From Candidatus Woesearchaeota archaeon (GTDB lineage Archaea; Nanobdellota; Nanobdellia; SCGC-AAA011-G17; DATDVL01): a DNA stretch of 47,359 nucleotides. A model generated the notes under the pieces. The model worked only from the letters and a program-made list of their open reading frames with translations, was not told the DNA's origin and did not search any database. Shown in pieces: positions 685 through 23,698 of the stretch (position 1 is the stretch's first letter; each line of letters opens with the position of its first letter). The stretch lies in assembly GCA_964365915.1 (NCBI GenBank), contig CAYIRJ010000004.1:1-47359 (forward strand), read 5' to 3'. A program made the translations under genes and the position numbers.

Positions 685-927
685 ATGGCTGAAGACACCT
701 TCGACATCCGCGAACACACCCTTGTGCCAAAACACGAGCGATTGAGTGAGGAGGCTGCGCAGCAGCTCTTGCAGAGTTATCACATTGAAAGAAAGCATCT
801 GCCAAAGATTTCTGTTAAGGATCCCTCTATCAAACATCTTGAACCCAAAGAAGGAGACATCATTAAAATCACAAGAATAAGCCCGACTGCGGGGAAAATA
901 TTTTTTTATCGTGCGGTGATGGAATGA
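685..927 (+). CDS. rpoH: DNA-directed RNA polymerase subunit H (Rpo5)
   Basis: 80 aa. HTLVPKHERLSEEAAQQLLQSY..LPKISVKDP..GDIIKITRISPTAGKIFFYRAV matches the RpoH/Rpb5 C-terminal pattern. ATGA overlap with rpoB''. Confidence 0.93.
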   Translation: MAEDTFDIREHTLVPKHERLSEEAAQQLLQSYHIERKHLPKISVKDPSIKHLEPKEGDIIKITRISPTAGKIFFYRAVME

Positions 928-2405
928 AGAACGATTTATTAATCCAACGCTACTTTGAAGAACACAGTTTAATAGCAAGCAATATCCAGAGCTTTGACCA
1001 TTTTGTAGAAAAAGGCATGCAGGATATTATCAAGGAACTGCAGGATGTGGTGCCTACTATTATTCCTCAGGACATTGATGATTTCAGGATTCGTTTGGAC
1101 AAAGTTTGGGTGGAAAAGCCCAACCTTGTGGAAGCTGATGGAAGCAAACGCAACATCTTACCTATTGAAGCGCGGCTCAGGAACTTAACCTATTCTGCTC
1201 CTATCTATCTAGAAGTGTCTGCGCATATCAATGGTGTGCAGAAGGAAAGTTTTACCACACAGATTGGAAAGCTTCCTATCATGCTGAAGAGCAAGTACTG
1301 CCATCTGCATGGATTGAAACGAGATGATTTAATTAAGAACGGGGAAGATCCGCAGGATCCTGGAGGGTACTTTATTTTGAATGGCAATGAACGCGTGCTC
1401 ATTACTGTAGAAGACTTGGCGAGCAACAAGCTGTTTGTGGAGCAGCCGAGCAGCGGCACTGCCAAGTTTATTGGAAGAATCTTCTCAGAAAAAGGAAGCT
1501 ATAGGATTCCACACCTCATCGAGCAGATGAAGGATGGGATCATCACTGTTTCTTTTACGCGATTCACAAGAATTTCCGTGGTTGCGCTGATCAAGGCATT
1601 AGGAGTAACCAAGGATGTTGAAATCGTGAACTACATCGGAGAGGGGCATCAGTATGATGATGTGTACATCAATTTGTACGACATGGTGTATTTGAAAACC
1701 CAGCGGGATGCGCTTGATTACATTGCCAAGAAGGCGGGCATGGTGAACCAGCAGGAAGAGGATTATGTGAAAGTGCTGGATAACTTAGACAAATACTTGT
1801 TGCCGCACATTGGGACCACAGAAAAGGACAGAGTGTATAAAGCGTACAACCTCTGCAAGCTGCTGAAGCGCTTTTTGATTACTACGAAGCAGGACATGGA
1901 AAATCAGGACAAAGACCATTACATGAACAAACGGTTGAAACTGTCTGGAGATCTGCTTGCTGATCTTTTTAGGGTGAATATGCGTGCTTTGGTGAATGAT
2001 ATTCTCTACAACTTCCAAAGGCTGGTCAAGCGCGGCAAGTTTAGTAGCATCAAGATTATCATCAGGGATAAATTATTGACGAGTAGGGTGAAAAGTGCGA
2101 TGGCAACCGGAACATGGGTGGGAGGAAGGAAAGGCATTAGCCAGAACATGGACAGGACGAACTTCCTTGCCACATTAAGCCATCTGCAACGCGTGGTTTC
2201 CTTACTGAGTTCAAGTCAGGAAAACTTTAAAGCAAGAAGCTTGCATCCTACGAATTACTCGCGATTGTGTCCGATTGAGACTCCGGAAGGAACGCCCATC
2301 GGATTAAGAAAAAATTTAGCCATGCTTGCTTCCATAACGCAGGAAGAATATTCGGAAGAAAAAGTACGCAAGGTCTTGGAAGGCCTGGGACTGCACCATG
2401 ACTGA
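924..2405 (+). CDS. rpoB2: RNA polymerase subunit B'' (N-terminal part of split subunit B)
   Basis: 493 aa, ending ..LHPTNYSRLCPIETPEGTPIGLRKNLA. Position and size are typical of split archaeal B''. Confidence 0.95.
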   Translation: MKNDLLIQRYFEEHSLIASNIQSFDHFVEKGMQDIIKELQDVVPTIIPQDIDDFRIRLDKVWVEKPNLVEADGSKRNILPIEARLRNLTYSAPIYLEVSAHINGVQKESFTTQIGKLPIMLKSKYCHLHGLKRDDLIKNGEDPQDPGGYFILNGNERVLITVEDLASNKLFVEQPSSGTAKFIGRIFSEKGSYRIPHLIEQMKDGIITVSFTRFTRISVVALIKALGVTKDVEIVNYIGEGHQYDDVYINLYDMVYLKTQRDALDYIAKKAGMVNQQEEDYVKVLDNLDKYLLPHIGTTEKDRVYKAYNLCKLLKRFLITTKQDMENQDKDHYMNKRLKLSGDLLADLFRVNMRALVNDILYNFQRLVKRGKFSSIKIIIRDKLLTSRVKSAMATGTWVGGRKGISQNMDRTNFLATLSHLQRVVSLLSSSQENFKARSLHPTNYSRLCPIETPEGTPIGLRKNLAMLASITQEEYSEEKVRKVLEGLGLHHD

Positions 2406-4200
2406 CGTCTTCATGGATGAGCGCTTTATCGGAACAGTGGACAATGTGCAGAAGTTTACTGAGCAGGTCAAGGAAGAGCGGAAAAGCGGAAAACTTCCCA
2501 GTACTCTGAATCTTTATTACAATGATCGGCATGACGAGCTGCATGTTGAGCTTTCCAAAGGAAGAGTGAGAAGGCCGTTGATTGTTGTGAAGAACGGCAA
2601 GAGCTTGTTCACTGAAGAGATTTACCAGCAAGTACAAGCAAAAAAGATGGGATGGAAGGAACTGGTGAGCCAGGGTATTATTGAATATCTTGATGCGGCT
2701 GAAGAAGAAAATACGTATGTTGCACTCTATGAAGAGGATCTTACTCCCGAGCATACCCATCTTGAAATCTCTCCTACCATCATGTTTGGCATTACTACCA
2801 GTTTGGTGCCTTATGCGAATTTTGGTCAGTCTACACGACTCAACAGAGGAAGCAAAACTCAGAAACAATCATTGGGATTGTATGCCTTGAACTATTTATT
2901 GCGCATGGACACTGATGTTTCTATCTTGCAGTATCCCCAGCAGCCTATTGTCAGAACGTTCATGCATGAAATTTCTGGGTACAATCATCATCCTGCAGGG
3001 CAAAATATTACCATTGCGCTCATGAGCTATGAAGGATATAATATGAGCGATGCGATTATTTTGAACAAGGGCAGTGTGGAGCGAGGATTGGCGCGCAGTT
3101 TTTACTTTAGACCGTACAATGCAGAGGAACTGAGATACTCTGGAGGATTGGTGGATGAAATTGGCATTCCTGACAAGGAAACCAAAGGATACCGCAGCGA
3201 AAAAGACTATCGATTCCTGGAAGATGATGGCATTATCTACCCTGAGCAGCGCGTGAGACCTGAGGACATTCTGATTGGAAAAACCAGCCCTCCGAGATTC
3301 CTAGGAGAGATGGAAGAGTTTAGCATCGCAGCAAGCACACGGAGAGAGAGCTCGGTTGCAGTCAAGCAGGGAGAGGAAGGGGTTGTTGACTTTGTCGTTA
3401 TTACTGAAAACGAGGAAGGCAACAAGATCATCCAAGTACGATTACGTGAACAACGCATTCCTGAAATTGGAGATAAATTCGCATCACGCTACGGGCAAAA
3501 AGGAGTGATTGGCATGATTGTGCCGCAAGCTGACATGCCCTTCTCGGTTTCTGGCATTGTTCCTGATTTGATTTTCTCTCCGCACTCGGTTCCCAGCAGA
3601 ATGACTGTAAGCCATCTGATTGAAGTAATAGGAGGAAAGATGGGAGCGCTCACCGGGCGGTACATTGATGGTACGACTTTCAATTCTGAGCCTGAAGTTA
3701 ACATCCGCAGCATGCTAGGAGAGATGGGATTCAGGGAAAACGGTACTGAGCGCATGATTAACGGCATTACAGGAGAGGAATTTGAAGTCACGATCTACAC
3801 AGGAAATATGTTTTATCTGCGTTTAAAACACATGGTTGCGAACAAGCTGCATGCGCGGGCATCAGGAAGAATCCAGCTCCTGACCCGGCAGCCGGTGGAA
3901 GGAAGAAGCAAAGGCGGAGGGTTGCGCTTGGGAGAAATGGAAAAAGACTGCTTTGTCGCGCATGGCGCGAGCTTACTGCTGAAAGAACGCTTTGACTCTG
4001 ACAAGACCATTGTGCATATCTGCGAAGAATGCGGCATGCTTGCAGTCTATGACAGCTTCAGGAACAGAAAATTCTGTGTGAAAGATGGAAGCAATGTGGA
4101 AATTACCCCCATTGAAATCAGTTATGCATTCAAATTGCTGCTCGACGAATTGAAATCCATGGGTATTGCACCGAGGTTGCGCCTGAAAAGCAAATACTAA
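2398..4200 (+). CDS. rpoB1: RNA polymerase subunit B' (C-terminal part of split subunit B)
   Basis: 600 aa. Conserved blocks GDKFASRYGQKGV, PHSVPSRMTV, GGLRLGEMEKDC and a C-terminal Zn ribbon (CEECG). Confidence 0.95.
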   Translation: MTDVFMDERFIGTVDNVQKFTEQVKEERKSGKLPSTLNLYYNDRHDELHVELSKGRVRRPLIVVKNGKSLFTEEIYQQVQAKKMGWKELVSQGIIEYLDAAEEENTYVALYEEDLTPEHTHLEISPTIMFGITTSLVPYANFGQSTRLNRGSKTQKQSLGLYALNYLLRMDTDVSILQYPQQPIVRTFMHEISGYNHHPAGQNITIALMSYEGYNMSDAIILNKGSVERGLARSFYFRPYNAEELRYSGGLVDEIGIPDKETKGYRSEKDYRFLEDDGIIYPEQRVRPEDILIGKTSPPRFLGEMEEFSIAASTRRESSVAVKQGEEGVVDFVVITENEEGNKIIQVRLREQRIPEIGDKFASRYGQKGVIGMIVPQADMPFSVSGIVPDLIFSPHSVPSRMTVSHLIEVIGGKMGALTGRYIDGTTFNSEPEVNIRSMLGEMGFRENGTERMINGITGEEFEVTIYTGNMFYLRLKHMVANKLHARASGRIQLLTRQPVEGRSKGGGLRLGEMEKDCFVAHGASLLLKERFDSDKTIVHICEECGMLAVYDSFRNRKFCVKDGSNVEITPIEISYAFKLLLDELKSMGIAPRLRLKSKY

Positions 4201-4201
4201 C

Positions 4202-6811
4202 ATGGCAGAGGACTACGTTTACAAATATGTGGACCAGATCCAGTTTGGACTGTTAAGCCCGGAAGAGATCCAGAAAATGAGTGCAGTAAAAGTTGTGACG
4301 CCTGAGCTGTATGACAATGAAGGATACCCTGTGGATGGAGGATTGATGGATATTCGCCTGGGGGTGATTGATCCTGGCTTACGATGCAAGACTTGTGGAG
4401 GGAAACTCAAGGAATGCATGGGGCACTTTGGCTATATTGACTTGGCACGGCCTGTTATTCATATCAAGTACATCAAGATGCTTCTGGATTGCTTGCGGTC
4501 TTCCTGCAGAGAGTGTGGGAAATTATTGCTGCAAGATAAGGACATGGAGAAATGGGGTCATCGCTTAACAAAATCACAGGCAGAAGGGGGAGAAGATGCA
4601 CGCAGGGATGTGGTGAGTTCAGTCATTACTAGTGTGAAGAATATCAGAAAATGTCCGCACTGTAAGGCGAAACAATATAGTATCAAGATCGAGAAACCCA
4701 GCACCTTTATGGAAAATGACAGAAGATTGACTCCTATTGAGATCAGGACAAGGCTAGAACGCATTCCTGATGATGCACTAGTGTATCTGGGATTACAATC
4801 GAAATCTGCACGCCCTGAATGGGCAGTGATGAGTATTTTGAATATTCCTCCCGTAACCATGCGGCCGAGTATTACTTTGGAAACAGGAGAACGGAGCGAG
4901 GATGATTTGACGCACAAGTTGGGAGATGTGGTCAGGATCAACCAGCGGTTATTTGAGAACATCAATGCAGGCGCTCCTGAAATCATTGTGGAGGACTTGT
5001 GGGACTTACTGCAGTACCATGTGACAACCTACTTGGATAATACCATCAGCCAGGTTCCTCCTGCACGGCACAGAAGCGGACAGGCATTGAAAACCTTAAC
5101 CGAGCGCATCAAGAGCAAGGAAGGAAGATTCCGCCATAATCTCGCAGGGAAGCGCGTTAACTATGCTGCACGCACAGTCATCAGTCCTGATCCGAAAATC
5201 AAGTTCAATGAAGTGGGCATCCCCCAGCGGGTAGCAATGGAACTGACGGTTCCTGAGCGAGTGAATGTCTGGAATATTGCATTGCTGAAGGAACTGATTG
5301 AGCGCGGTCCTGAAGTGTATCCGGGAGCGAACTATGTCATTAGACATGACGGCAAGAAAAAACAGATTACTGAAGAAACACGAGAAGTGATTCTTGCGGA
5401 ATTGGGACCGGGCATGATTGTGGAACGGCATCTTGTGGATGGGGACATTGCTTTATTCAACCGGCAACCGAGCTTGCATAGGATGAGCATCATGTGCCAT
5501 CGCATTCGCGTACTTCCGGGAAAAAGTTTTCGGTTGAATCCGAGCGTGTGCAATGCGTTCAATGCAGACTTTGATGGAGATGAGATGAACTTGCACGTTC
5601 CGCAGACTGAGGAAGCGCGTGCAGAAGCAGAAATCCTGATGGAAGTGCAGACCCAGCTCATTACTCCGAAGCATGGCTATAATGTCATGGGATGTGTGGA
5701 AGATGCAGTTACCGGACTCTACTTGCTGACGAAGGGGGAGGGCATGCCATTTTCCAAAGAGGAGGCTGTACAACTGTTTGTTAGCATTGGTATTGAAGAT
5801 CCTAAGATCACCCGACAAAAAGTTAATGGAAAGGAATTGTTCAGCATGCTGCTGCCGAAGGATTTTACCTATGAAGGACTTGCCAAAGGTGTGCCGAAAG
5901 ATGCGGAATTAAAAAGAGGAGATGATGGCTTGGTTATTATTGAAAACGGGCAACTGGTGAGCGGCGTCATTGATGCCAATGCTGTCGGAGAAGAACGCGG
6001 AAAAATGATCATGGAATTTTATCGGCGCTATGGCCCGGTAACCACCATCGAATTTTTAGGGAACATCTTCAGGCTGGGGATTAAGGTCTTGCTGAAGCGC
6101 GGGTTTACGATCAGCATTGACGACATCGACATTACTGAGGAAGTGCAAGAGAAAATTACTACATCACTTAGCCAAGGGGATAAGGACGTGGATGAACTGG
6201 TCAAAGAATACCATGCAGGCAAGATGGAAACGCTGCCAGGAAGAACCCTTGCAGAAACTTTAGAAATCAAAACCTTAGGAGTCCTGAACAAGATCCGCGA
6301 CAAAATCGGACAATATGTTGCACAAAACACGCGTCCAAAAAATTCTGCGGTGATCATGGCAAAATCAGGTGCCAAAGGAAAAATTTTGAACCTTGCCCAG
6401 ATGTCAGGGTGCGTCGGGCAGCAGGCACTGATGGGACACCGCATTACTACGGGATACAAAGGAAGAACTTTGAGCATGTTCAAAAAGCACGATTTGTCTG
6501 CAAATGCGCACGGATTTGTGAAGAGCAGCTTCAAAAGAGGATTAAATCCTTACGAGTTTTTCTTCCATGCCATGACCGGAAGAGATGGATTAATGGATAC
6601 TGCACTGCGCACTCCTAAGTCTGGTTATCTTTATCGAAGGCTGGCAAATGCATTGCAAGACATGAAAGTGGAGTATGACAACAGTATCCGAGATGCCAAC
6701 AAGAACATCGTGCAGTTTGCCTATGGTGAAGACGGACTTGAAGTCAGCAAAACTTGGGGAGGCAATCTCAACATCAAGCGCATTGTGAAGAGTGTCAAAC
6801 ATGAAAGATAA
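4202..6811 (+). CDS. rpoA1: RNA polymerase subunit A'
   Basis: 869 aa. Zn motif CKTCGGKLKECMGHFG and catalytic NADFDGDEMNLHVPQ. Confidence 0.96.
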   Translation: MAEDYVYKYVDQIQFGLLSPEEIQKMSAVKVVTPELYDNEGYPVDGGLMDIRLGVIDPGLRCKTCGGKLKECMGHFGYIDLARPVIHIKYIKMLLDCLRSSCRECGKLLLQDKDMEKWGHRLTKSQAEGGEDARRDVVSSVITSVKNIRKCPHCKAKQYSIKIEKPSTFMENDRRLTPIEIRTRLERIPDDALVYLGLQSKSARPEWAVMSILNIPPVTMRPSITLETGERSEDDLTHKLGDVVRINQRLFENINAGAPEIIVEDLWDLLQYHVTTYLDNTISQVPPARHRSGQALKTLTERIKSKEGRFRHNLAGKRVNYAARTVISPDPKIKFNEVGIPQRVAMELTVPERVNVWNIALLKELIERGPEVYPGANYVIRHDGKKKQITEETREVILAELGPGMIVERHLVDGDIALFNRQPSLHRMSIMCHRIRVLPGKSFRLNPSVCNAFNADFDGDEMNLHVPQTEEARAEAEILMEVQTQLITPKHGYNVMGCVEDAVTGLYLLTKGEGMPFSKEEAVQLFVSIGIEDPKITRQKVNGKELFSMLLPKDFTYEGLAKGVPKDAELKRGDDGLVIIENGQLVSGVIDANAVGEERGKMIMEFYRRYGPVTTIEFLGNIFRLGIKVLLKRGFTISIDDIDITEEVQEKITTSLSQGDKDVDELVKEYHAGKMETLPGRTLAETLEIKTLGVLNKIRDKIGQYVAQNTRPKNSAVIMAKSGAKGKILNLAQMSGCVGQQALMGHRITTGYKGRTLSMFKKHDLSANAHGFVKSSFKRGLNPYEFFFHAMTGRDGLMDTALRTPKSGYLYRRLANALQDMKVEYDNSIRDANKNIVQFAYGEDGLEVSKTWGGNLNIKRIVKSVKHER

Positions 6812-9398
6812 CGCAATTGATTTTGCAGCAGCACTGCCGAAAAAAATTTTGGATGAGTTTGAAGAGCTGGCAGCAGCAGAAAAATTAACGCAGAAACAGA
6901 AACAGGAAGCACTGGCACTGCTGCATGAAGAATATCAGAACAGCAAGATCAGCCCTGGGGAGGCGATTGGGATCATCACTGCAGAGAGCTTTGGCGAACC
7001 AGGGACTCAAATGTCACTATTTTTTAGTAACAAAATAATTGTGAAAATAAACAACAATAAAATATTTACGGTAAAAATTGGACCGTTTGTTGATATGTTA
7101 ATGAAGATGAAAGGATCATTTAAACTCAACGATCATTCAGAAATTCTTCCTTTACATGATTTTGAAATTTATGTTCCTAGTTTAAATCAAGAAGAAAAGA
7201 TAGAATGGAAACGCGTGATTGAATGTAGTAGGCATATCACAAACAAAAAACTTATGAGAATTACTACTGCTTCTGGTAGGTCTGTTACCTGTACTGATAA
7301 TCACTCTTTTGTAAATCGTATTCATAATAAGATTACTCCAATAAAAGGGACAGAATTGCAAATTGGAAATAGAATTCCCGTTATTAATTCATTTGTGAAT
7401 CCCTTACCGATGCAAGAATTATCTATCAAAAACCACATCATCGATAATGAAGGAATAGTTGAAGAAAAAGGCGTACTTTCCAAACCAGGAACTAATGCTA
7501 AATCTATGAATGGAAGTTTACCATTAAATGAATCTACTGGATGGTTTATTGGTGCATATCTTGCAGAAGGCAATGGAGGAAAATACCACGCTTCTCTTTC
7601 CAATGTAAATGATAATTACATCAATAACGGTAAACGCTTCGCTGATTCTCTAGGTATTGAACCTGTCGACAGATTTTATATTGGAGAATATGGTCCAGGT
7701 AGATCATTAACATTACATTCTGGATTTTTAGGTAGTTTCATTATAACTCATTGTGGGCAAGGTTCAGATTTCAAAAAAGTCCCTTACTTTGCTTATTCTG
7801 CATCTGATGCGTTCATCTCTGGATTGCTGAGAGGCTACTTTGATGGCGATGGGAATTTCCATGTGGATAGAAAGATGATTCGCTGCTCTTCCAATTCCAA
7901 AGAATTAATAGATGGCATTGCCTTGCTGTTGTCACGATTCAGAATATTTTCCTTTAAAGTACAAGATAAGAAAGGGCAGCACTGGCTCTTGATTCCCTAT
8001 AAGTATGCTCCTTTATTCTTGCAGCACATTGGAAGCGATATTGATTACAAACGTGCTAGCCTCGAAACTTTAGCAGAAAAAGCCAAACGCTTCTGGAATT
8101 CGAGAAGCCAAGATTATACAGACATGATTTCAGGATTTGGAGAACTTTTCAGGAATACTGCAAAGAAGGTTGGCTATCCTACGCGTTACGTCAATAACTT
8201 TACGAACCGCCAAAAAATTGGAAGAACTGCCCTCTTCCGATACATGAAACTCTTTGAACATCTTGCCAAGGAAAAAAACATAGACATTAAGGATGAGCTT
8301 GCTATCATGCAGCGCATGTCTTCCTCTGATGTGGTGTGGGATGAGATTGTAAAGATTGAATATGTCGATAATGACAAGCCTGTTTATGACCTCAGCGTGC
8401 CAGGATTAGAAACATTCACGACAGCAGATGGCATTATCACCCATAACACTTTGAATGTTTTTCACTTTGCAGGCGTCGCGGAAGTGGCAGTGACCCAAGG
8501 ATTGCCCAGGCTTATTGAACTGTTTGATGCCAGAAAAGAAATCAAGACTCCTTTAATGGAAATTTATCTGGACAAGGATATTGCCAAGGATCCTGAAAAA
8601 GTGAGGAAGATGGCTGCACAAATCAGGGAAACCCGTGTCGAGGAAGTGGTCAGTGATTTTTCCATTGATGTTGCACGGCTGCAGATTGCATTGGTGCTGG
8701 ACAAACAGAAGATGAGAAACCTTTCCATTACCAACAATCAGCTAATGAAAGCACTGGAACAGGACATTAAAACTGCCTCGATCAAGGATGAAGGAGATAG
8801 CATTGTACTGAAAACTAAGGTAAAGGAAAATGAGCTGATGGAAACGTACAAGCTGAAGGAAAAAACAAAAACAGTGTTTGTCCGGGGAGTTGCGGGCATC
8901 ACCCAAGTATTGCCAGTGAAGGCAGGCAACGAGTTCATTATCCTTGCAGCAGGGTCGAATCTGAAGGAAGTGTTCGCACTGAAAGGAGTGGATGCTGCAC
9001 GTACGACTACGAACGACATCTTTGAAGTGCAAAAAGTGCTGGGTATTGAGGCAGCACGGCAGACCATCATTAACGAGGCGAAAAAAGTGATTGAGGACCA
9101 AGGACTGGAAGTGGATGTCCGTCATATTTTGTTTATTGCAGATGCCATGACTGCAACAGGAGTAGTAAAAGGGATTACTCGATCAGGCATTACTGGAGAG
9201 AAGGAAAGCGTGCTTGCCCGGGCCAGCTTTGAAACCCCTATTGAACACTTGGTGGATGCCTCGCTGGTGGGAGAAGTAGACTATTTGAATTCCGTCATTG
9301 AAAATGTGATGCTGAACCAGATTGTTCCTTTGGGAACAGGATTGCCTGACCTCAGGGCAGTGACCCAAACTGAGGACAAGGAAAAGAAGGAAGCATGA
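6792..9398 (+). CDS. rpoA2: RNA polymerase subunit A'' interrupted by an intein (390-aa extein plus 478-aa intein)
   Basis: The conserved A'' string GEPGTQM|TLNVFHFAGVAE is split by 478 aa. The ORF-track start at 6792 is GTG. ATG at 6801 is the alternative start. The gene overlaps the rpoA' stop (6809-6811). Confidence 0.93.
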   Translation: MSNMKDNAIDFAAALPKKILDEFEELAAAEKLTQKQKQEALALLHEEYQNSKISPGEAIGIITAESFGEPGTQMSLFFSNKIIVKINNNKIFTVKIGPFVDMLMKMKGSFKLNDHSEILPLHDFEIYVPSLNQEEKIEWKRVIECSRHITNKKLMRITTASGRSVTCTDNHSFVNRIHNKITPIKGTELQIGNRIPVINSFVNPLPMQELSIKNHIIDNEGIVEEKGVLSKPGTNAKSMNGSLPLNESTGWFIGAYLAEGNGGKYHASLSNVNDNYINNGKRFADSLGIEPVDRFYIGEYGPGRSLTLHSGFLGSFIITHCGQGSDFKKVPYFAYSASDAFISGLLRGYFDGDGNFHVDRKMIRCSSNSKELIDGIALLLSRFRIFSFKVQDKKGQHWLLIPYKYAPLFLQHIGSDIDYKRASLETLAEKAKRFWNSRSQDYTDMISGFGELFRNTAKKVGYPTRYVNNFTNRQKIGRTALFRYMKLFEHLAKEKNIDIKDELAIMQRMSSSDVVWDEIVKIEYVDNDKPVYDLSVPGLETFTTADGIITHNTLNVFHFAGVAEVAVTQGLPRLIELFDARKEIKTPLMEIYLDKDIAKDPEKVRKMAAQIRETRVEEVVSDFSIDVARLQIALVLDKQKMRNLSITNNQLMKALEQDIKTASIKDEGDSIVLKTKVKENELMETYKLKEKTKTVFVRGVAGITQVLPVKAGNEFIILAAGSNLKEVFALKGVDAARTTTNDIFEVQKVLGIEAARQTIINEAKKVIEDQGLEVDVRHILFIADAMTATGVVKGITRSGITGEKESVLARASFETPIEHLVDASLVGEVDYLNSVIENVMLNQIVPLGTGLPDLRAVTQTEDKEKKEA
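7014..8447 (+). mobile_element. Intein with LAGLIDADG homing endonuclease, in frame in rpoA''
   Basis: Starts at Ser (TCA 7014) right after GEPGTQM. Ends ..VYDLSVPGLETFTTADGIITHN (AAC 8445-8447), followed by Thr+1. Block B is TCTDNHSF. Two LAGLIDADG motifs: GWFIGAYLAEGNG and LLRGYFDGDGNF. The 5' part is very AT-rich (10/60 G+C at 7021-7080, against 30/60 at 6961-7020). Confidence 0.9.
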
Positions 9399-9649
9399 GT
9401 CTGGATGCACTGCGCAAAGCATTGAAGGAAAAAACCTTAGTCTATGGAAGTGATGCTACTTTGCGTAATCTCCGGCTGGGAAAAACGAAAACTATTTTCC
9501 TGGCGAAAAACTGCCCTGCTCTGGTGAAAGAAAGCATCCAAAGATACTCGCGGATAGCTGATGTCATGATTTATGCATTGGACGAGCCGAGCGACGAGCT
9601 TTCTCTTATCTGCAAGAAGAAATTCAATGTTGCGGTCGTGAGCTATTAA
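9395..9649 (+). CDS. rpl30e: 50S ribosomal protein L30e
   Basis: 84 aa, pattern ..LRNLRLGKTKTIFLAKNCP...Y..IADVMIYALDEPSDELSLICKKKFNVAVVSY. In the canonical position after rpoA''. Confidence 0.85.
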   Translation: MSLDALRKALKEKTLVYGSDATLRNLRLGKTKTIFLAKNCPALVKESIQRYSRIADVMIYALDEPSDELSLICKKKFNVAVVSY

Positions 9650-9652
9650 ACC

Positions 9653-10060
9653 ATGCAGTATGACCTCCAGTTGATTGGCTATCTCAATACTTTTGAATCC
9701 CTAACCCGATCGAAAGTGAAGGATGTGTTCTTTGATGCTACGGAGACCTTGGTGTTTGTGATGCAGCCAGGAGAGATGGGAAAAGCCATTGGCAAGAAAG
9801 GCAGCAATGTGAAACGCTTAGGAAACTTGCTGAAGAAGCGCATTCGCGTTATTGAATTTTCTTCTTCTGCCATTGATTTTGTTAAAAATTGCACGCTGCC
9901 CTTGATTCCGAAAAAGATGGTGCAGGAAGTGGATACTATCACTATCACCATGGAAAATACGCAACAGAAGGCTATGCTGCTGGGAAGGAACAAAAGCAAT
10001 TTCTTGAATATGCAGAAGATAGTGCAGAGATATTATCCGGTGCAGCTGAAAGTGTTATAG
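9653..10060 (+). CDS. nusA: archaeal NusA-like transcription termination/antitermination protein (KH domains)
   Basis: 135 aa. KH signature GKAIGKKGSNVKRL. In the canonical position after rpl30e. Confidence 0.85.
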   Translation: MQYDLQLIGYLNTFESLTRSKVKDVFFDATETLVFVMQPGEMGKAIGKKGSNVKRLGNLLKKRIRVIEFSSSAIDFVKNCTLPLIPKKMVQEVDTITITMENTQQKAMLLGRNKSNFLNMQKIVQRYYPVQLKVL

Positions 10061-11266
10061 AAATATATCATCCTCAGCATCGTAGTCCATTCCTAAGGCC
10101 TTTGTGAATTTTACTTGGTTTTCCTTGATCTGCAGTTTTTGCAGTGCCTTGTTCCTTATTTGTCGAATTCTTTCTCGTGTCACGTTTCCCTCGATTGTAC
10201 CTACTTCTTCCAATGTTCTTTTTTCTCCTGTAAGATACAATAATCTTATTATTCTTTTTTCTCTTTCTTTTAAAGAAGTTTTATCAAGTGCTTGAATAAT
10301 CATTTCTTTATCATAGACTAAAATATTTTCCCTTATCCTTTCTTGGTAATCATGGCAATCTCTTTTTTCCAAATAATCAACTATTTCTTGATCTTGTTGA
10401 TTGTGCTGAATATTTTCTTTTGCTGGAGTTAAGTCCTGCTTAGCTCTGTCATCTAATGTCAACGTTCGATGAAGATTCTGATCTTTGGGTTCTTGGTAAA
10501 GAGTGTTTATTTCTAGATTTACAGGATTCAAAGCCTTGCATATTAATTCAGTTTTTTTATCCGCAATTTCTTCTCCTCTTATTACCTTTTCTGCCCTTAG
10601 GAATAAAAAAGAATCTAGATGCACTGCTGCATAGGAATAGTTATGATAATTTTCACTCATTACACCAAAAAAGGCAGCTCTATACACTGCTGTGTATCCT
10701 GGATGTTTTTCTGCTTTTCTCACGAAATTAATAATAGATATAGAAGCCCGCTGTATGAGATCTTCCAATGGTGGTGATTCTAAATTCCTTGATTTTCTAT
10801 AGCGAATAAATGATTTTCCTGCCTGCGTGGCTGTATGCAGAAAATACGTCTCCATAAATCGTTGCATCTCTTGTTCAGAATATCCTGCTTCTTTCAACGC
10901 TGGAGCAATATGCCCTCGATAATGATGTACAAATGTTGCATGGTATCTTTGATTTACTTCTTCTTGCGTGGCAGATGGGTGCTGCTGTAAAAATTTGAGA
11001 AAGTTCCTTTTTCTTTCATCCCAGACTTTCTCTGACAATTGCCCTTTTCCCCTATTCCAAGCTGATTTTGAAATGCCTACATCTTTTTTTGCATTGTTAA
11101 TTCTCAACCGGTAGAACTTTTTGAGAATGGATTCTAGTCCTGCTTTCCTTACATCCCTTATGCTCGCTCCTTGATGACTTGCTAAATAGTCATAAAATTC
11201 TGTTAATCCTCTTTCCCAATATGCGTAATCCTTCTGTACCTGTTTTTGCTCTGATATAGTAGTCAT
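10055..11266 (-). CDS. sigma-70 family-like protein (region 2-like and region 4 HTH)
   Basis: 403 aa. The C-terminus LKEREKRIIRLLYLTGEKRTLEEVGTIEGNVTRERIRQIRNKALQKLQ is the classic sigma-70 region 4.1/4.2 signature. LEDLIQRASISIINFVRKAEKHPGYTAVYRAAF resembles region 2.1-2.3. The gene is AT-rich (15/60 G+C at 10201-10260). Confidence 0.8.
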   Translation of the reverse strand: MTTISEQKQVQKDYAYWERGLTEFYDYLASHQGASIRDVRKAGLESILKKFYRLRINNAKKDVGISKSAWNRGKGQLSEKVWDERKRNFLKFLQQHPSATQEEVNQRYHATFVHHYRGHIAPALKEAGYSEQEMQRFMETYFLHTATQAGKSFIRYRKSRNLESPPLEDLIQRASISIINFVRKAEKHPGYTAVYRAAFFGVMSENYHNYSYAAVHLDSFLFLRAEKVIRGEEIADKKTELICKALNPVNLEINTLYQEPKDQNLHRTLTLDDRAKQDLTPAKENIQHNQQDQEIVDYLEKRDCHDYQERIRENILVYDKEMIIQALDKTSLKEREKRIIRLLYLTGEKRTLEEVGTIEGNVTRERIRQIRNKALQKLQIKENQVKFTKALGMDYDAEDDIFL

Positions 11267-11287
11267 TTATCTCTTGTCATTCATTTT

Positions 11288-11306
11288 CTTTTTAAGACTT
11301 GTGAAC
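11288..11306 (-). promoter_or_regulatory. TATA box plus shared upstream motif for the sigma-like gene
   Basis: Minus strand reads GTTCACAAGTCTTAAAAAG. The TATA centre is about 26 nt upstream of ATG 11266. The motif recurs at 26553-26569. Confidence 0.45.
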
Positions 11307-11308
11307 TT

Positions 11309-11722
11309 TTAGAATTCCATAACGTGAGGAGATTCCTTTATTTCCTCATTAGCAATCAGTGGAGCTGGTTCCCTACGATACACTCTTCCTTTTGCAATCA
11401 GTTTCGAAGACTCTTCAGGGTGCACTAAAGGAGGATGTTTATACCGTACTTTGACAGCATCATTTTGATACAGTACTGTTCCCTCTGCTTGTAAAATACA
11501 TACCAACCCCTCATCAAGTCCTGCTAGTGGAATATGCCATCCTAAATGAGTTTTTACAGAAGCGAACTGGATACTTTGATTGGGATATGTACATACATAC
11601 CAAAATTTTCCTTCCTCCTCACCCCTTGTTATTCCTCGTGTGATAATGGTCAGAATTTCATTTTTCTTTACTGTCCTTAATACTTCTTCTAATGCAGAAA
11701 AGACCCCCATATGTGACTTCAT
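11309..11722 (-). CDS. hypothetical protein (137 aa), directly upstream of the sigma-like gene
   Basis: Long ORF on the same strand as the sigma-like gene and in the same AT-rich insert. No family recognised. Confidence 0.55.
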   Translation of the reverse strand: MKSHMGVFSALEEVLRTVKKNEILTIITRGITRGEEEGKFWYVCTYPNQSIQFASVKTHLGWHIPLAGLDEGLVCILQAEGTVLYQNDAVKVRYKHPPLVHPEESSKLIAKGRVYRREPAPLIANEEIKESPHVMEF

Positions 11723-11787
11723 ACGTGACTTATTAGGCGTTATGAGTATAAATACTTAATGTCTACCAAATAAAAAATCAGCACAAT

Positions 11788-11797
11788 CTTTATAAAT
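11788..11797 (+). promoter_or_regulatory. TATA box (CTTTATAAAT) for rps12
   Basis: Centre lies about 28 nt upstream of ATG 11820, which fits a leaderless transcript starting at [11 protein letters not shown]. Confidence 0.45.
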
Positions 11798-12257
11798 GGC
11801 TTTCAGAAATTATTTTCTTATGTCTGGAAAATCCAATGGATTATTTGCTGGAAAGCGCTTGAAGAATCGGAGAAAACAATTTCGGTGGAACTCTAAATGG
11901 TTCACTAGGAAAACACTGAATCTTAAGGAGAAAGCAGATCCTCTGGGAGGAGCTTCGCAGGCTAAGGGAATTGTTTTGGAAAAGACACAGCGGGAAGCGA
12001 AACAGCCAAATTCAGCGATGAGAAAATGCGTTCGCGTTCAGCTTCAGAAAAATGGAAAGATCATCACTGCATTTGCGCCAAGAGATGGAGCCATTAAGCA
12101 GATTGATGAGCATGATGAAGTCATTGTTGAATGCATTGGTGGTACTATGGGAAGGGCGAAAGGAGATTTGCCTGGTGTGAGATGGCAAGTGATCAAGATT
12201 AACGATCAAAGCTTGGATGCCTTACTGAAAGGCAAGATTGAAAAGGGACGACGATGA
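11796..12257 (+). CDS. rps12: 30S ribosomal protein S12 (uS12)
   Basis: [24 protein letters not shown]...[25 protein letters not shown]. The true start is probably ATG 11820 (see TATA spacing); the ORF-track start at 11796 overlaps the TATA box. Confidence 0.93.
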
Positions 12258-12844: not shown

Positions 12845-13267
12845 TTACTCTTCTTCGATCCGTTTTTTCTCTACTCTATATCCAGCATATCGAAAAATAG
12901 ACTGATACTCTTTTTTACATACACTGCGTCGTGGTGATTGTTCGGGTTTTGGTTGATGGAGAAGTTCGTCAAGACTCTTGAGATTATAGTCCCATAATTT
13001 ACTTATTCTTCCTTGCGCAGCAAGTTCATTAAAAATTATTTTTATATTCTCTTCAGCATATACTCTCTTGTATCTTTCCCCTATACGTCCCAACATTTTT
13101 GCAATTTTTTCGTCTAGATACTGTACATAGGGAGCAAGTCTCCTTTCTAATCCTCCCCTTCTGCATCCTAATTGGAGTGCCATAGCTTTTACTTCTGGAA
13201 GGACATAGACCAACGTTTTCCCTTCCTGCGCTAATTGTTCTCGATACTGACGTAAACTTTCTGTCAT
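12845..13267 (-). CDS. hypothetical protein (140 aa) inserted between rps7 and EF-2
   Basis: Long ORF with its own TATA (revcomp of 13288-13298) about 25 nt upstream of ATG 13267. Its stop abuts the rps7 stop (TAATTA). No family recognised. Confidence 0.55.
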   Translation of the reverse strand: MTESLRQYREQLAQEGKTLVYVLPEVKAMALQLGCRRGGLERRLAPYVQYLDEKIAKMLGRIGERYKRVYAEENIKIIFNELAAQGRISKLWDYNLKSLDELLHQPKPEQSPRRSVCKKEYQSIFRYAGYRVEKKRIEEE

Positions 13268-19332: not shown

Positions 19333-19917
19333 ATGGTAAAATTATTTTTAGTGCGCCACGGGGAAGCAATTGAAGCAGAGCCTGAGCCTATGCTTTCGAA
19401 AAAAGGTAAACAACAAGCAAAGGCTGTTGCAAAAAGGCTTGTACAATTTCGAATAACGAAAGTATATACGAGTAGCGCACGGCGAGCTTTGGAAACTTAT
19501 GAGCTATACAAAAAATTGAAACCTGATATTCCGGTTATAGTTTCTGATAAGTTAAAAGAAGTATATCGTACATTAGTTGGTGGTCCTGAACGTGAAGGTA
19601 CATCTCTCGATCGTGCAAAGAAAGATATGCAACGTGCAGATACTATCTTAAAAGAGATCCTTGATGATACTAAAGAAGATGATATTGTTCTTTTGTTTAT
19701 TCATGGAAATTTAATTCGATATATTCTTGCTCACTTTTTACAAATAAGTAAAGTGAACTTATGGGAAGAGTTAGAGATTCATGATGCTTCAATCTCATTA
19801 ATCGAAATTGTTAACAACAAACCACAAATCCGCTTGGTTAATTCCATCGAACATTTAGATAAAAAAGAAGTTGATGAATTCTACAATTGCTATGCAAAAA
19901 CAGAATATCTTTCTTAG
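19333..19917 (+). CDS. histidine phosphatase family protein (phosphoglycerate-mutase-like)
   Basis: 194 aa. N-terminal LFLVRHGEA (RHG catalytic motif) and a later IHGNLIRY block. Confidence 0.75.
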   Translation: MVKLFLVRHGEAIEAEPEPMLSKKGKQQAKAVAKRLVQFRITKVYTSSARRALETYELYKKLKPDIPVIVSDKLKEVYRTLVGGPEREGTSLDRAKKDMQRADTILKEILDDTKEDDIVLLFIHGNLIRYILAHFLQISKVNLWEELEIHDASISLIEIVNNKPQIRLVNSIEHLDKKEVDEFYNCYAKTEYLS

Positions 19918-21086
19918 GAAAGAAGTGTAACTAAAGATTTTGAAGGGCTATCATTAAATTGGTTAATTCCTCGTATTCGTCCTTGCCTTCCCATTGTTGC
20001 TCGTAATTCTGAAAAATTGTATAGTTCAATCGTTTTTGCCTCTAATGCTCCTCTTGATTTTGGATTGATAAGATAACCTGTTGTTCCGTTAACTATTGCT
20101 TCAACAACTCCTCCACTGTTTCCTCCTATAACTGGTATTTGATGCATGCCAGCTTCAAGAAAGACAATTCCAAAACCCTCTACATCATTAGGTGGAATAA
20201 ATTCTGTTGGTAAAACAAAAATATCAGCAGCACCATAGTGCGTTGCTAAACCCACGTTATCAACTTGATCATGAATGTGCACTCTTTCTTCGAGATTATG
20301 AAGATTTATGGTTTCTTGAATATGTGCTTTATTTGGACCATCACCTACGATGGCATAATGGATGTTAGGTATAGCTGTTCGCAGATTAGGAAATATCTCA
20401 ACAAAGCTATACTGACCTTTTCTGTCTATGAGACGCCCTACAGAGAGCACAACAAAATCATCTGGAGTATAACCAAGTGCTATTTTACAATTTGCTTTAT
20501 CTTGTAATGTTGGCGTGCTTAAAGAAGGCGGAAGTAAATGGAATCTTGCATGAATACCTTGATGTACCAATAAATTTTGCGTGAATTTGCTAATACAAAA
20601 AACACGATCTGCATCTTGTAATACAGTTTTGTAAAATAGAGCTTCATCTTGTGTGTATCCTTGATGTGCCCCTGTCGAAGAGCGGTTTTCATTAACAATA
20701 GCATTATCAATGAATACTTCTTTTGCATGGGTAATAATTCCTGTTCGTACAGAAGGTTTATATATTTTATAATCTCGACCAGCTTCTGGATGTGAGCGGA
20801 GATAACCAAAAAGTGCTATATCTGTGTTTGTTTGTCTTAAGATGTCAACAATAGTACGATTCGTTTGTCTTCTGGGAGGAGTTTCATGTTCAAAGGGAAA
20901 AAAATCGGTCCTATACACATCAAATGGTAGACTTTGATAATCTGTAACTTGGCCAATATTATTAGGAACAATAACTTGAAAACGCTCACTTGCAAAATAC
21001 TTTCTATAAATTTGCATTAAGTAAGTTGCTATGCCTCCCTTCATAGGATGGAAATCTTGTGTGATCAGTGTAACACTTTTTACCAT
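19914..21086 (-). CDS. glycosyltransferase family 4 (GT-B, retaining type)
   Basis: 390 aa. EGFGIVFLEAGMHQIPVIGGNSGGVVEAIVNGTTGYLI is the GT4 E-x7-E region. Confidence 0.85.
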   Translation of the reverse strand: MVKSVTLITQDFHPMKGGIATYLMQIYRKYFASERFQVIVPNNIGQVTDYQSLPFDVYRTDFFPFEHETPPRRQTNRTIVDILRQTNTDIALFGYLRSHPEAGRDYKIYKPSVRTGIITHAKEVFIDNAIVNENRSSTGAHQGYTQDEALFYKTVLQDADRVFCISKFTQNLLVHQGIHARFHLLPPSLSTPTLQDKANCKIALGYTPDDFVVLSVGRLIDRKGQYSFVEIFPNLRTAIPNIHYAIVGDGPNKAHIQETINLHNLEERVHIHDQVDNVGLATHYGAADIFVLPTEFIPPNDVEGFGIVFLEAGMHQIPVIGGNSGGVVEAIVNGTTGYLINPKSRGALEAKTIELYNFSELRATMGRQGRIRGINQFNDSPSKSLVTLLS

Positions 21087-21090
21087 AGGA

Positions 21091-21915
21091 TTATTTGAAT
21101 ACCTCTCGGAATTGTCTTAAAGATGTTTTCGCCTCCCTTGGATGTCCCCATCGATGACGATCATATGCCTGAATTAAAAAGAAAATACCTCTGCCGAAGC
21201 GTAATTCTTCTTGACTTAAGTGAGATTTTCCTTGAAAATATTGATCAAGGTAAGTTGCTTGTTCTGTTCCATTACGACAAACTCGAAGAAGAGGTCTTGC
21301 TAAATCGAAGGCGACAGGTCCATCTAATACATGTTCTAAATCAATAGCAACGAGCCTTTGTTTTGTTTTAACAATATTGCTCAGCGAATAGTCTCCATGA
21401 ATCAACCCATAAGTAGAAAATTGAGGTGTAGGCAATTCATTTTTTCTTACTAACTGATGCTGTAAAAGATAGGTGTAAACACGATCAAGTTTTTCAGCCC
21501 AACCATCTAAATTATAATTATCTACCTGGTGGAATGCTGCTTGAAGCTGTGCGACAGCAAAAATATCTAGGGTAGGTAAGGTCTCTAACACCTCTCCATC
21601 GATAAATGTAGTTACAAATCCTCGTTCAAGTATTCCTACAATAGGTGAAGAAATTATTCTTGATCTATTTTTCTCATCGAGTCTTTGTTTATATTGTGTT
21701 ATATTTGACGTTCTATCTGTAGGATGATAAATAAACGTTCCATTTGCTGTTGTAAATAATAATGGGCTTTGTCTTGTTCCTGCTTTCCATCCCGTATTAA
21801 TAACTTGGTGATGAGTGATTTCTCCAAAATTTCTTGATAATGTAGACATTACTTCTCTTACATTATTTATACTCATTTGAATAATCCTCGGTATGTTTGG
21901 AAGATAATATTCCAA
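21091..21915 (-). CDS. aminoglycoside/choline-kinase-like phosphotransferase (APH fold)
   Basis: 274 aa. GLIHGDYSLSNIV (HxDxxxxN) and VAIDLEHV (IDxE) motifs. Confidence 0.7.
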   Translation of the reverse strand: MEYYLPNIPRIIQMSINNVREVMSTLSRNFGEITHHQVINTGWKAGTRQSPLLFTTANGTFIYHPTDRTSNITQYKQRLDEKNRSRIISSPIVGILERGFVTTFIDGEVLETLPTLDIFAVAQLQAAFHQVDNYNLDGWAEKLDRVYTYLLQHQLVRKNELPTPQFSTYGLIHGDYSLSNIVKTKQRLVAIDLEHVLDGPVAFDLARPLLRVCRNGTEQATYLDQYFQGKSHLSQEELRFGRGIFFLIQAYDRHRWGHPREAKTSLRQFREVFK

Positions 21916-23060
21916 TCAAATAATGTTTCTGCTCGTATTCTTCCCTTTACTCCCATAGCACGTCGTGTTGTAGGGTTTTGGATAAGCTCAACAAGCCTAT
22001 TGGCTGCTGTTTCATAATCTCTTTCAGATACTAAGAACCCCGTTTCACCATCTTGCACTATTTCAGGGACGCCTCCTACTCGAGAAGCGATGATGGGTAG
22101 ACCTGAAGCAGACGCTTCACAAAGACATCTTCCCATAGTTTCCGTGTGAACATAAGATGAGCCTCGTTCATGCTTTTCTAAGTGGATAGGCATATGTAAA
22201 AAAATATCTGCTGTCCTGAAATATGCAGGCATATCTTCTATTCTTCGTGCACCAAGTAAATGCACATTATTCAATCCACGATCAACCACTATCTTTTCGA
22301 TAGTTTCTCGTTCTGGACCATCACCTAAAATATGATATTGAAAATGGACATCTTGCCTTGTTGCTTGTTCTATTGCTCGAAGTGAATATTCCCAACCTTT
22401 AAAATCAACAAGTCGTGCAGCAGTTAGTATGTTAACAGTTTCTCTTGAGGATGATGTAGTGGGATAAAAAGTATTACAGTCAACACCACCAGTAACTTTA
22501 ACAAGTTTGTCAGAATTCACGCCGACCGATATTGTTCTATGATAAGAGTATTGACTATTGACTATGAATCTGTCTACGTATTTATTTACTAAGTTTACAA
22601 CTCTTGCTCGTGAAGCCTCTAAGCTTCTTGTAGTGTCTGTTTCATCTCCAATCCATCCAGCCACAATATCATTTCCACCTGATCGAACAATAACTTGTGT
22701 TTGTGGATATGTTTGCTTGATAATTGCAAGCGAAGGTAGCCATGTTGGACTATTTAAGTAGAAAATAGTGTTGTTAGGATCTTGATTTGCAAGGAGTATT
22801 ACTGCATCTTTCTCAAAGTTGCCAGTTAATGATTTGTTTACCAATACTTCTAAATCTTTATTTGCAAGTGCTTGTGCTGGTCCATGTGAACTGTCGCCTG
22901 GAGCTGGAACGCCGTCAGTGACTAAATCTTTAACAAATATCTTACTTATAGGAAATTCTTGATGCCCAGCAAATGCACGAGCGAATTCATACGCATGTGT
23001 TTCCATACCACCGATATGGCTAGAGAATTTTGGTGAGATAAAGCAAATTTGCTTAACCAT
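21873..23060 (-). CDS. glycosyltransferase family 4
   Basis: 395 aa. The N-terminus ICFISPKFSSHIGGMETH and CEASASGLPIIASRVGGVPEIVQDGETGFLV are typical of GT4. Confidence 0.85.
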   Translation of the reverse strand: MVKQICFISPKFSSHIGGMETHAYEFARAFAGHQEFPISKIFVKDLVTDGVPAPGDSSHGPAQALANKDLEVLVNKSLTGNFEKDAVILLANQDPNNTIFYLNSPTWLPSLAIIKQTYPQTQVIVRSGGNDIVAGWIGDETDTTRSLEASRARVVNLVNKYVDRFIVNSQYSYHRTISVGVNSDKLVKVTGGVDCNTFYPTTSSSRETVNILTAARLVDFKGWEYSLRAIEQATRQDVHFQYHILGDGPERETIEKIVVDRGLNNVHLLGARRIEDMPAYFRTADIFLHMPIHLEKHERGSSYVHTETMGRCLCEASASGLPIIASRVGGVPEIVQDGETGFLVSERDYETAANRLVELIQNPTTRRAMGVKGRIRAETLFDWNIIFQTYRGLFK

Positions 23061-23698
23061 TAAAACTCACCTCGTTCACGAAGAATATCGTCAACAGGTA
23101 CGCCCTTTTTAATATCTTCTTTTATCTTTTGTTCTAAATCGGCAACTGCAACACATTGTGTGAGAACTTCACTTTCAATTGTTTGAGGAATAACAGCGAC
23201 CGCATCATAATCACCAAATAATAAATCTCCTGGCTTGATAGTACATTCTCCAATAATGACTGATATATCTAATTTATCAACAATACCTCTCTTTTTAATA
23301 TCTCGAGCATAGTTGGTTCGCGCAAAGACAGGATAACACATATTTATGGTTTCAATAGTATCTCTTGTACAACCATCAATAATTGTTCCATCAACACCCC
23401 GATATTGAGCTAATGTTGCCATGAGTTCCCCAAAAAATGCCATTTCTTTGAAACCATTTCCAACAACAAGAACATCTCCCTTATTTAATTGCTCAAGAAA
23501 ATGGGGTCCTCTATAAACCTCTCGGTGGTCTTCACCATTAGTAATCGGTTTAAGAGACATTGGTCTTGCTCGCCCAAATAAACGTGCTTTAACAAAGTTA
23601 GGTTTAATGTCTGAAGGAAGTAATTGGTGTGTATACCCCATTTCGTCTAAAACATCAGAGATTATTGCTGAAGAGAGACGTGTTTTATAATCAATCAT
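23060..23698 (-). CDS. RraA-like / class II pyruvate-aldolase-like protein
   Basis: 212 aa. SSAIISDVLDEMG, GDVLVV.., FFGELMATLAQYRGVDGTIIDGCTRD and PVFAR follow the RraA/HMG-aldolase family pattern. Confidence 0.75.
   Translation of the reverse strand: MIDYKTRLSSAIISDVLDEMGYTHQLLPSDIKPNFVKARLFGRARPMSLKPITNGEDHREVYRGPHFLEQLNKGDVLVVGNGFKEMAFFGELMATLAQYRGVDGTIIDGCTRDTIETINMCYPVFARTNYARDIKKRGIVDKLDISVIIGECTIKPGDLLFGDYDAVAVIPQTIESEVLTQCVAVADLEQKIKEDIKKGVPVDDILRERGEF

Follow-up and report, generated by a model that had tools for sequence, protein, structure and literature searches.

Our analysis concerns a sigma-70-like gene carried by an archaeon. The stretch of DNA analysed, referred to here as the window, comprises 47,359 nucleotides (nt) of contig CAYIRJ010000004.1 from a Candidatus Woesearchaeota archaeon and contains a transcription and translation cluster in the order rpoB''/B' (split, 924-4200), rpoA' (4202-6811), rpoA'' (6792-9398), L30e, nusA with KH domains (9653-10060), rps12, rps7 and EF-2. 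The archaeal RNA polymerase (RNAP) of this cluster (split B''/B', A', A'') is the only RNAP encoded within the window, and archaeal transcription initiation relies on TBP and TFB. An initial annotation of the DNA had placed a sigma-70-like gene antisense in this cluster, between nusA and rps12. Two minus-strand open reading frames (ORFs) do indeed occupy that gap, one of 403 amino acids (aa) at 10055-11266 and one of 137 aa (orf137) at 11309-11722. The larger of the two, the sigma-like gene, was divided into the following parts.

10055..11266, minus strand: the sigma-like gene, 403 aa plus stop; from the N-terminus it comprises two repeats, a bundle resembling sigma2, a degenerate middle part, sigma4 and an acidic tail
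11057..11236, minus strand: repeat 1, aa 11-70, a helical unit of ~60 aa with the motif W..R...L..YL...P.AT..DV..AG....L.KFY...IN.AK.D.GI (alignments; predicted local distance difference test, pLDDT, >90)
10856..11038, minus strand: repeat 2, aa 77-137 (alignments, model)
10652..10855, minus strand: helical bundle like sigma region 1.2/2.1-2.4, aa 138-205, with PPLEDLIQ of region 2.2 kept (BLASTP, hhalign, alignments, model)
10307..10651, minus strand: degenerate middle, aa 206-320, with no recognisable region 3 and an acidic 3.2-like linker at its end (Pfam scan, model)
10127..10306, minus strand: helix-turn-helix of sigma region 4.1-4.2, aa 321-380, recognition helix VTRERIRQIRNKAL (profile matches, alignments, model)
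10058..10126, minus strand: family-specific C-terminal tail, aa 381-403, acidic and hydrophobic (..LGMDYDAEDDIFL), common to the relatives P0121 and P0122 (alignments)

Profile searches identified the C-terminal domain of the protein as sigma region 4. Pfam Sigma70_r4 (PF04545) matched at E 1.3e-10 with 41.1 bits against a cut-off of 24.1, the NCBIfam RpoD_Cterm model at E 4.8e-13, and a PHROG sigma factor family at E 1.2e-10. Solved SigA sigma4 domains matched at E ~1e-8 with VTRERIRQI conserved, and region 4.2 is nearly identical to the consensus TRERIRQIE.KAL. The region 4.1/4.2 motif with which the product had been said to end is therefore real, but it occupies aa 332-379 and 24 residues remain after it. 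Beyond region 4, PADLOC returned no match for the protein; its region-4 match is to MzaA and provides no evidence for membership in a defence system.

The block upstream of sigma4, previously likened to region 2.1-2.3, proved homologous to it. BLASTP to bacterial RpoD aligned aa 166-392 at E 5e-11, with the block LEDLIQRASISII... aligned with bacterial region 2.2, and hhalign of a profile built from the archaeal relatives alone against a bacterial region 2-4 profile gave a probability of 99.8 % (E 1.6e-27, 215 columns). The initial annotation had proposed a search with the Pfam Sigma70_r2, r3 and r4 models; r4 was significant, whereas neither Sigma70_r2 (PF04542) nor r3 (PF04539) matched at E<=1, and TIGR02937 scored 28.6 bits, under its cut-off of 42.9. 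Judged from these alignments, the sigma2-like region is homologous to bacterial regions 2.1-2.4 yet degenerate. In sigma70 genetics, region 2.2 is the main determinant of core-RNAP binding, while positions of region 2.3/2.4 capture and recognise the -10 element. Residues D169 and Q172 of the 2.2 motif LEDLIQ are invariant across the repeat-plus-sigma-like family described below, and GLPSPPLEDL is more strongly conserved than any other block outside region 4. In the window protein DLIQRAS stands where the canonical 2.2 motif is DLIQEGN, with R at the equivalent of E407 (QRAS vs QEGN). The region 2.3/2.4 signature GYKFSTYATWWIRQAITR (YATWWIRQ..T.R type) is replaced by GYTAVYRAAFFGVMSEN (VYRAAFFGVMS), and the relatives carry non-canonical sequences of the R..LFRMIS type at these positions, so that the WW/Y/Q/T/R positions are replaced in five of five family members. 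Residues 206-320 were modelled at pLDDT <60, and a single-sequence AlphaFold model (pLDDT 40.5) was unusable. Canonical -10 melting would thus lie beyond the reach of this protein, and with the residues for -10 recognition and melting replaced and region 3 unrecognisable, a complete sigma factor was ruled out.

The N-terminal repeats, which the initial annotation had overlooked, are the most informative feature of the protein. A word-index search with the window protein recovered itself and then bacterial RpoD at <=45 bits, and one with the family alignment was dominated by bacterial RpoD and did not recover even the known relatives. Relatives were found by an exhaustive HMMER search of 1.84 billion representatives, which returned P0121 (835 aa, 343 bits, query 7-399), P0122 (775 aa, 224 bits), P0128, P0137 and P0126. 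All of them begin with tandem copies of a ~60-aa unit of the form W..R...LL.YL.E.P.AT..DV..AG....L.KFY.GRINEAKKDAGI. There is no Pfam model for this repeat, whose first helix gave weak HTH_24 matches, and no description of it or its fusions was met in our literature searches. A likeness to the Pfam 'homing endonuclease associated repeat' was unsupported, as no such match appeared even at E<=10. The repeat-plus-sigma-like family, as defined here, consists of the window protein, P0121, P0122, P0128 and P0137; like the others, the window protein carries ~60-aa repeats, then a sigma2-like domain with GLPSPPLEDLxQE, then sigma4. P0121 and P0122 are 33-37 % identical to it overall, 47-54 % in region 4 and up to 61 % in region 2.2.

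The repeat also occurs in other combinations. It is joined to region 4 without sigma2 in P0126, P0139, P0140, P0144, P0145 and P0155, follows a complete sigma factor like those of the extracytoplasmic function (ECF) group in P0138, which has a Pfam Sigma70_r2 match, and is joined to TFIIB/TFB cyclin repeats in P0133, P0150, P0152 and an ORF of contig L041. In P0161 (L034:107-1222) the repeats are accompanied by a region-4-like helix-turn-helix and an RNAP alpha C-terminal domain (alpha-CTD; Pfam RNA_pol_A_CTD, 29.8 bits), on a contig too short to place the host domain. Some proteins contain the repeat alone, and the C-terminal parts of some others have no family match. Partner domains of the repeat that are significant in Pfam are promoter-recognition or promoter-binding modules of basal transcription, the exception being an N-terminal CENP-B-type helix-turn-helix in P0124. 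Two tandem paralogues from Aenigmarchaeota, P0125 and P0134 (adjacent loci KAT37_00210 and KAT37_00215), carry 3-6 repeats and a common C-terminal domain of ~300 aa, which gave no family match.

Genomic contexts could be read for a minority of the repeat proteins, others sitting on contigs too short for this. Each of the sigma-type-plus-repeat genes with an informative context lies on an archaeal contig (5/5: the window, P0128, P0122, P0155 and P0138). P0128 comes from a Pacearchaeota metagenome-assembled genome (MAG). P0122 adjoins RtcB and archease, with Bro-N and toxin-antitoxin-like genes in its neighbourhood; P0155 adjoins GatD/GatE-type genes and TrmB; and P0138 adjoins PcrB, eIF-5A and DUF460. 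Every TFIIB-plus-repeat gene examined is located on a bacterial contig; these contigs reach 114 kb and carry DnaB (317 bits), RecR, bL21, DnaX and CysS. These contigs are syntenic, and the bacterial cases therefore represent one lineage. The contig name 'GBSOD1_12' hints at OD1/Parcubacteria. TFIIB/TFB-family ORFs were noted on bacterial contigs at L029:6001-6870, L035:422-1372 and 3377-4213, and L041:4999-5700 and 5983-6981, and one bacterial contig also encodes a TFB homologue of full length (100 bits), in which a Zn ribbon is combined with two cyclin repeats. A full-text literature search returned no paper containing both 'TFIIB' and 'Patescibacteria', and none was among the top results of a broader search combining TFIIB/TFB with the candidate phyla radiation (CPR). 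The reciprocal distribution of sigma-type and TFB-type fusions is our most unusual result, its basis being five contexts in archaea and a single bacterial lineage.

Expression signals in each set are of the host type. The archaeal repeat-fusion genes have a B recognition element (BRE)/TATA-like element at ~-33 to -25 from the ATG, a geometry that precedes six relatives, while the bacterial TFIIB-plus-repeat genes are preceded by GGAGG ribosome-binding sites and by TTGACA-N17-TATAAT-type promoters. The neighbouring genes and promoter elements of the window locus are as follows.

9653..10060, plus strand: nusA, KH domains; convergent with the sigma-like gene, with a 6-nt overlap at the two stops
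11289..11295, minus strand: TATA-like TTAAAAA of the sigma-like gene, starting 29 nt and centred ~26 nt upstream of its ATG
11309..11722, minus strand: orf137, the uncharacterised upstream neighbour on the strand of the sigma-like gene; a real gene, but no partner conserved across the family
11747..11752, minus strand: TATA box TTTATA of orf137, ~27 nt upstream of its ATG and paired back to back with that of rps12 (11789-11796, plus strand)
11820..12257, plus strand: rps12, whose true start is probably 11820; it bounds the insertion slot on the other side

The insert had been described as possessing its own TATA box, and such elements were found upstream of both the sigma-like gene and orf137, starting 29-30 nt before the ATG. 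In the window as a whole, distances of 28-31 nt from the start of a TATA-like hexamer to the ATG were seen for the sigma-like gene, orf137, orf140 (a further antisense ORF, described below), rps12 (ATG 11820), EF-2 and about eight others. This spacing indicates putative archaeal leaderless promoters for these window genes, and leaderless transcription seems, from the predicted start sites, to be the rule in this genome. The rps12 border had been set at 11796; the start is most likely the ATG at 11820, since the TATA at 11789-11796 lies 27 nt upstream and the orthologue on contig L008 begins MSGKSNG.

The initial annotation had raised the possibility of a misassembled bacterial fragment. Two further contigs, L001 (13 kb) and L007 (5.5 kb), recovered from replicate groundwater samples of the 0.1-um fraction, show an identical gene order, and because this order is found in three assemblies, chimeric assembly is excluded. 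The L007 copy of the protein differs from the window protein by 2 aa, and this two-residue variant is present in NCBI as 'sigma factor-like helix-turn-helix DNA-binding protein [Nanoarchaeota archaeon]', assigned to a MAG. The earlier description of an AT-rich, opposite-strand insert was reproduced, and the insert is lineage-specific: the interval 10201-10260 has 15/60 G+C, and the sigma-like gene has 35.6 % GC with 27.7 % at third codon positions (GC3), against a GC3 of 40-57 % in the RNAP and ribosomal genes. The low-GC3 class also takes in native-looking genes, an antisense orphan at 12845-13267 and a glycosylation island at 19.3-25.1 kb.

Comparison with related genomes places the sigma-like gene in a variable position. 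In Woesearchaeota and other archaea (L010, L011, L012, L014), rps12 directly follows nusA. In the nearest relative, L008 (NusA 73 %, S12 94 % identical), the gap holds an unrelated plus-strand ORF of 242 aa, and in L009 a 168-aa homologue of orf137 directly follows nusA and the sigma-like gene is absent. The space between nusA and rps12 is therefore a slot of variable content at the boundary of an operon, and the sigma-like gene is a recent, species-level, lineage-specific arrival in it; its closeness to the RNAP genes is therefore probably incidental. It follows from the L009 arrangement that orf137 is older at the slot than the sigma-like gene and is no dedicated partner of its product. An anti-sigma role had been suggested for orf137 and was ruled out: it has no match in Pfam, NCBIfam, PHROGs or PADLOC, nor in a word-index search, its homologue in L009 occurs without the sigma-like gene, and none of the neighbours of other family members resembles it.

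A third antisense orphan, orf140 (140 aa, 12845-13267, minus strand, GC3 27 %), has its own TATA ~30 nt upstream and fills the gap between rps7 and EF-2; it has no family match. L008 holds an unrelated 204-aa ORF in that gap, which is therefore a second variable slot of the conserved cluster. Also in L008, the EF-2 N-terminus was matched twice (L008:7960-8178 for residues 1-74 and 8608-10404 for residues 17-617, with ~430 nt between), a pattern that points to partial duplication, insertion or a fault of the assembly. Elsewhere in the window, rpoA'' (6792-9398, plus strand) is split by an intein that carries a LAGLIDADG homing endonuclease (Intein_splicing, LAGLIDADG_3); the intein is present in L008 and absent in L009-L014, where the extein halves are contiguous. 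A block of six genes at 19333-25112 (GC3 19-25 %) encodes two GT1 glycosyltransferases, an APH-type kinase, an RraA-like aldolase, a cytidylyltransferase/MptE-like protein and a histidine phosphatase; it is probably a surface-glycan island, accessory or foreign in origin.

We interpret the window protein as a domesticated descendant of a bacterial group-1-like sigma factor that most likely acts as a sequence-specific DNA-binding transcription regulator inside the archaeon and not as an initiation factor, and we put the chances of this interpretation at about even. In such a regulator sigma4, possibly aided by the repeats, would bind a DNA motif and modulate archaeal transcription, with the repeats as auxiliary modules for binding DNA or protein. 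Protein-contact surfaces may be provided by the conserved 2.2 motif and by the acidic tail (..LGMDYDAEDDIFL), with the RNAP clamp coiled-coil as one candidate partner. The interpretation is supported by the lack of Pfam r2/r3 matches, the replacement of the 2.3/2.4 positions throughout the family and the poorly modelled middle of the protein. Family identity peaks in regions 4 and 2.2, which we read as selection. The host-type TATA spacing, the archaeal nature of the sole RNAP in the window and the fusion of the repeat to sigma4, ECF-like sigma, alpha-CTD and TFIIB cyclin domains point the same way. Several observations weigh on the other side. TTGACA is not enriched in the window (23 matches vs 37.8 expected), and the conserved 2.2 motif suggests a protein partner that a plain repressor would not need. 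In addition, the sigma-like fold of the structure model is not independent evidence, because its alignment contained bacterial sigma sequences, and the strain variants, 2 aa apart, are too similar for a within-species ratio of nonsynonymous to synonymous substitution (dN/dS).

The least improbable alternative, though still an unlikely one, is that the protein is an RNAP-associated factor in which the retained region 2.2 would dock on the A' clamp coiled-coil, a structure homologous to the bacterial beta' clamp helices, and sigma4 would then keep the enzyme at certain promoters, such as those of genes derived from bacteria, alongside TBP/TFB or in competition with TFE and Spt4/5. The invariance of D169 and Q172 and the strong conservation of GLPSPPLEDL favour such docking, as does the complete ECF-like sigma, with its Sigma70_r2 match, that P0138 keeps on an archaeal contig. 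A role of DPANN sigma proteins in regulating transcription alongside TBP, TFB and TFE is also raised by Castelle et al. 2021 (PMC8204110). Against docking, the -10 melting residues are lost, region 3 is degenerate, and the window protein has R at the E407 equivalent.

It appears quite unlikely that the gene belongs to the cargo of an integrated mobile element, whether virus, plasmid or other, and serves to control the genes of that element. The low GC3 (27.7 %), which resembles that of the two other antisense orphan ORFs, the different genes held in the slot by the nearest relatives, the Bro-N and toxin-antitoxin-like genes near P0122 and the intein homing endonuclease nearby in the window are all compatible with mobile cargo. 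However, no direct or inverted repeats above chance, such as would suggest a transposon, flank the insert; no integrase or capsid gene adjoins the sigma-like gene; IMG/VR scans with the protein and with the repeat consensus gave nothing convincing; and a structure search of BFVD gave no significant match. The end of the gene is moreover tightly packed against nusA. The suggestion that the insert is a mobile-element relic accordingly gained no support.

We regard as improbable a cross-domain effector, that is, an archaeal product acting on the RNAP or promoters of a bacterial partner and mirrored by TFB-cyclin-plus-repeat proteins from bacteria living on archaea. The reciprocal pattern, in which all five informative sigma-type genes lie on archaeal contigs and all examined TFIIB-type genes on bacterial ones, is what such effectors would produce, and the host-type expression signals in each set agree with it. 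Patescibacteria that parasitise methanogenic archaea have reportedly been documented, which also counts for it. Set against these points, neither a secretion signal nor a delivery system was identified, the protein lacks the -10 recognition residues that driving a bacterial RNAP would require, and this archaeon has no known bacterial host; the bacterial cases come from one syntenic lineage, so that n is effectively 1, and contexts were read for a minority of the repeat proteins. A decaying, functionless relic of horizontal transfer, which the degenerate regions 2.3/2.4 and 3 and the confinement of the gene at this locus to one species-level lineage might suggest, is very improbable, given an intact 403-aa frame in 36 % GC DNA, relatives at 33-37 % identity that share its architecture, motifs and family-specific tail, and a host-type promoter at the canonical distance.

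Comparison with known systems serves to delimit what is new. Like bacterial group 1/2 sigma-70 factors (RpoD/SigA), the window protein is homologous over regions 2.1-4.2 and retains an acidic 3.2-like linker and the DLIQ of the 2.2 motif. Unlike them, it lacks region 1.1 and a recognisable region 3, has its -10 residues replaced, adds two unrelated N-terminal repeats and an acidic C-terminal tail, and is accompanied in the window by an archaeal RNAP alone. In contrast to the WhiA C-terminal domain and LuxR/GerE-type regulators, which have no sigma2, its helix-turn-helix is clearly sigma-derived and still linked to a sigma2-like domain. Archaeal TFB3, a truncated general-factor paralogue that is said to have degenerated from an initiation factor and to act as an activator, is an analogue in concept only; TFB3 derives from the host's own machinery, whereas the window factor stems from the other domain of life. 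Sigma-70 family genes (fam00359) have already been reported in DPANN archaea, where they are prevalent in Woesearchaeota (Castelle et al. 2021, PMC8204110); that report found no anti-sigma factors for them and left their mechanism open. The gene of the window is likewise a sigma-70-type gene on a bona fide DPANN contig, but its repeat fusion and 2.3/2.4 degeneracy do not appear in the text of that paper drawn upon here. With sigma-70 in DPANN already known, what is new is the repeat module and its fusions with sigma4, ECF-like sigma, alpha-CTD and TFB cyclin domains.

On a wider scale we offer a tentative and, on balance, doubtful proposal: that the ~60-aa repeat marks an unrecognised chimeric class, in which DPANN archaea carry bacterial promoter-recognition domains (sigma2/sigma4, alpha-CTD) and OD1/Parcubacteria-like bacteria carry archaeal ones (TFB cyclin core, full-length TFB), each under host-type signals. 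The proteins arising from such reciprocal cross-domain exchange would either act on acquired DNA, reading or silencing its foreign-type promoters, or manipulate the transcription machinery of a partner belonging to the other domain. A sigma descendant in an organism that uses TBP and TFB raises the question of what sigma domains do without a bacterial polymerase, and this locus, with an intact sigma4, a sigma2 that keeps just the core-binding motif and a new repeat module, is a compact test case for it. If the proposal is true, modules of basal transcription would pass between two domains of life among co-occurring ultra-small microbes, and the repeat fusions would be candidates for handling foreign genes or partners.

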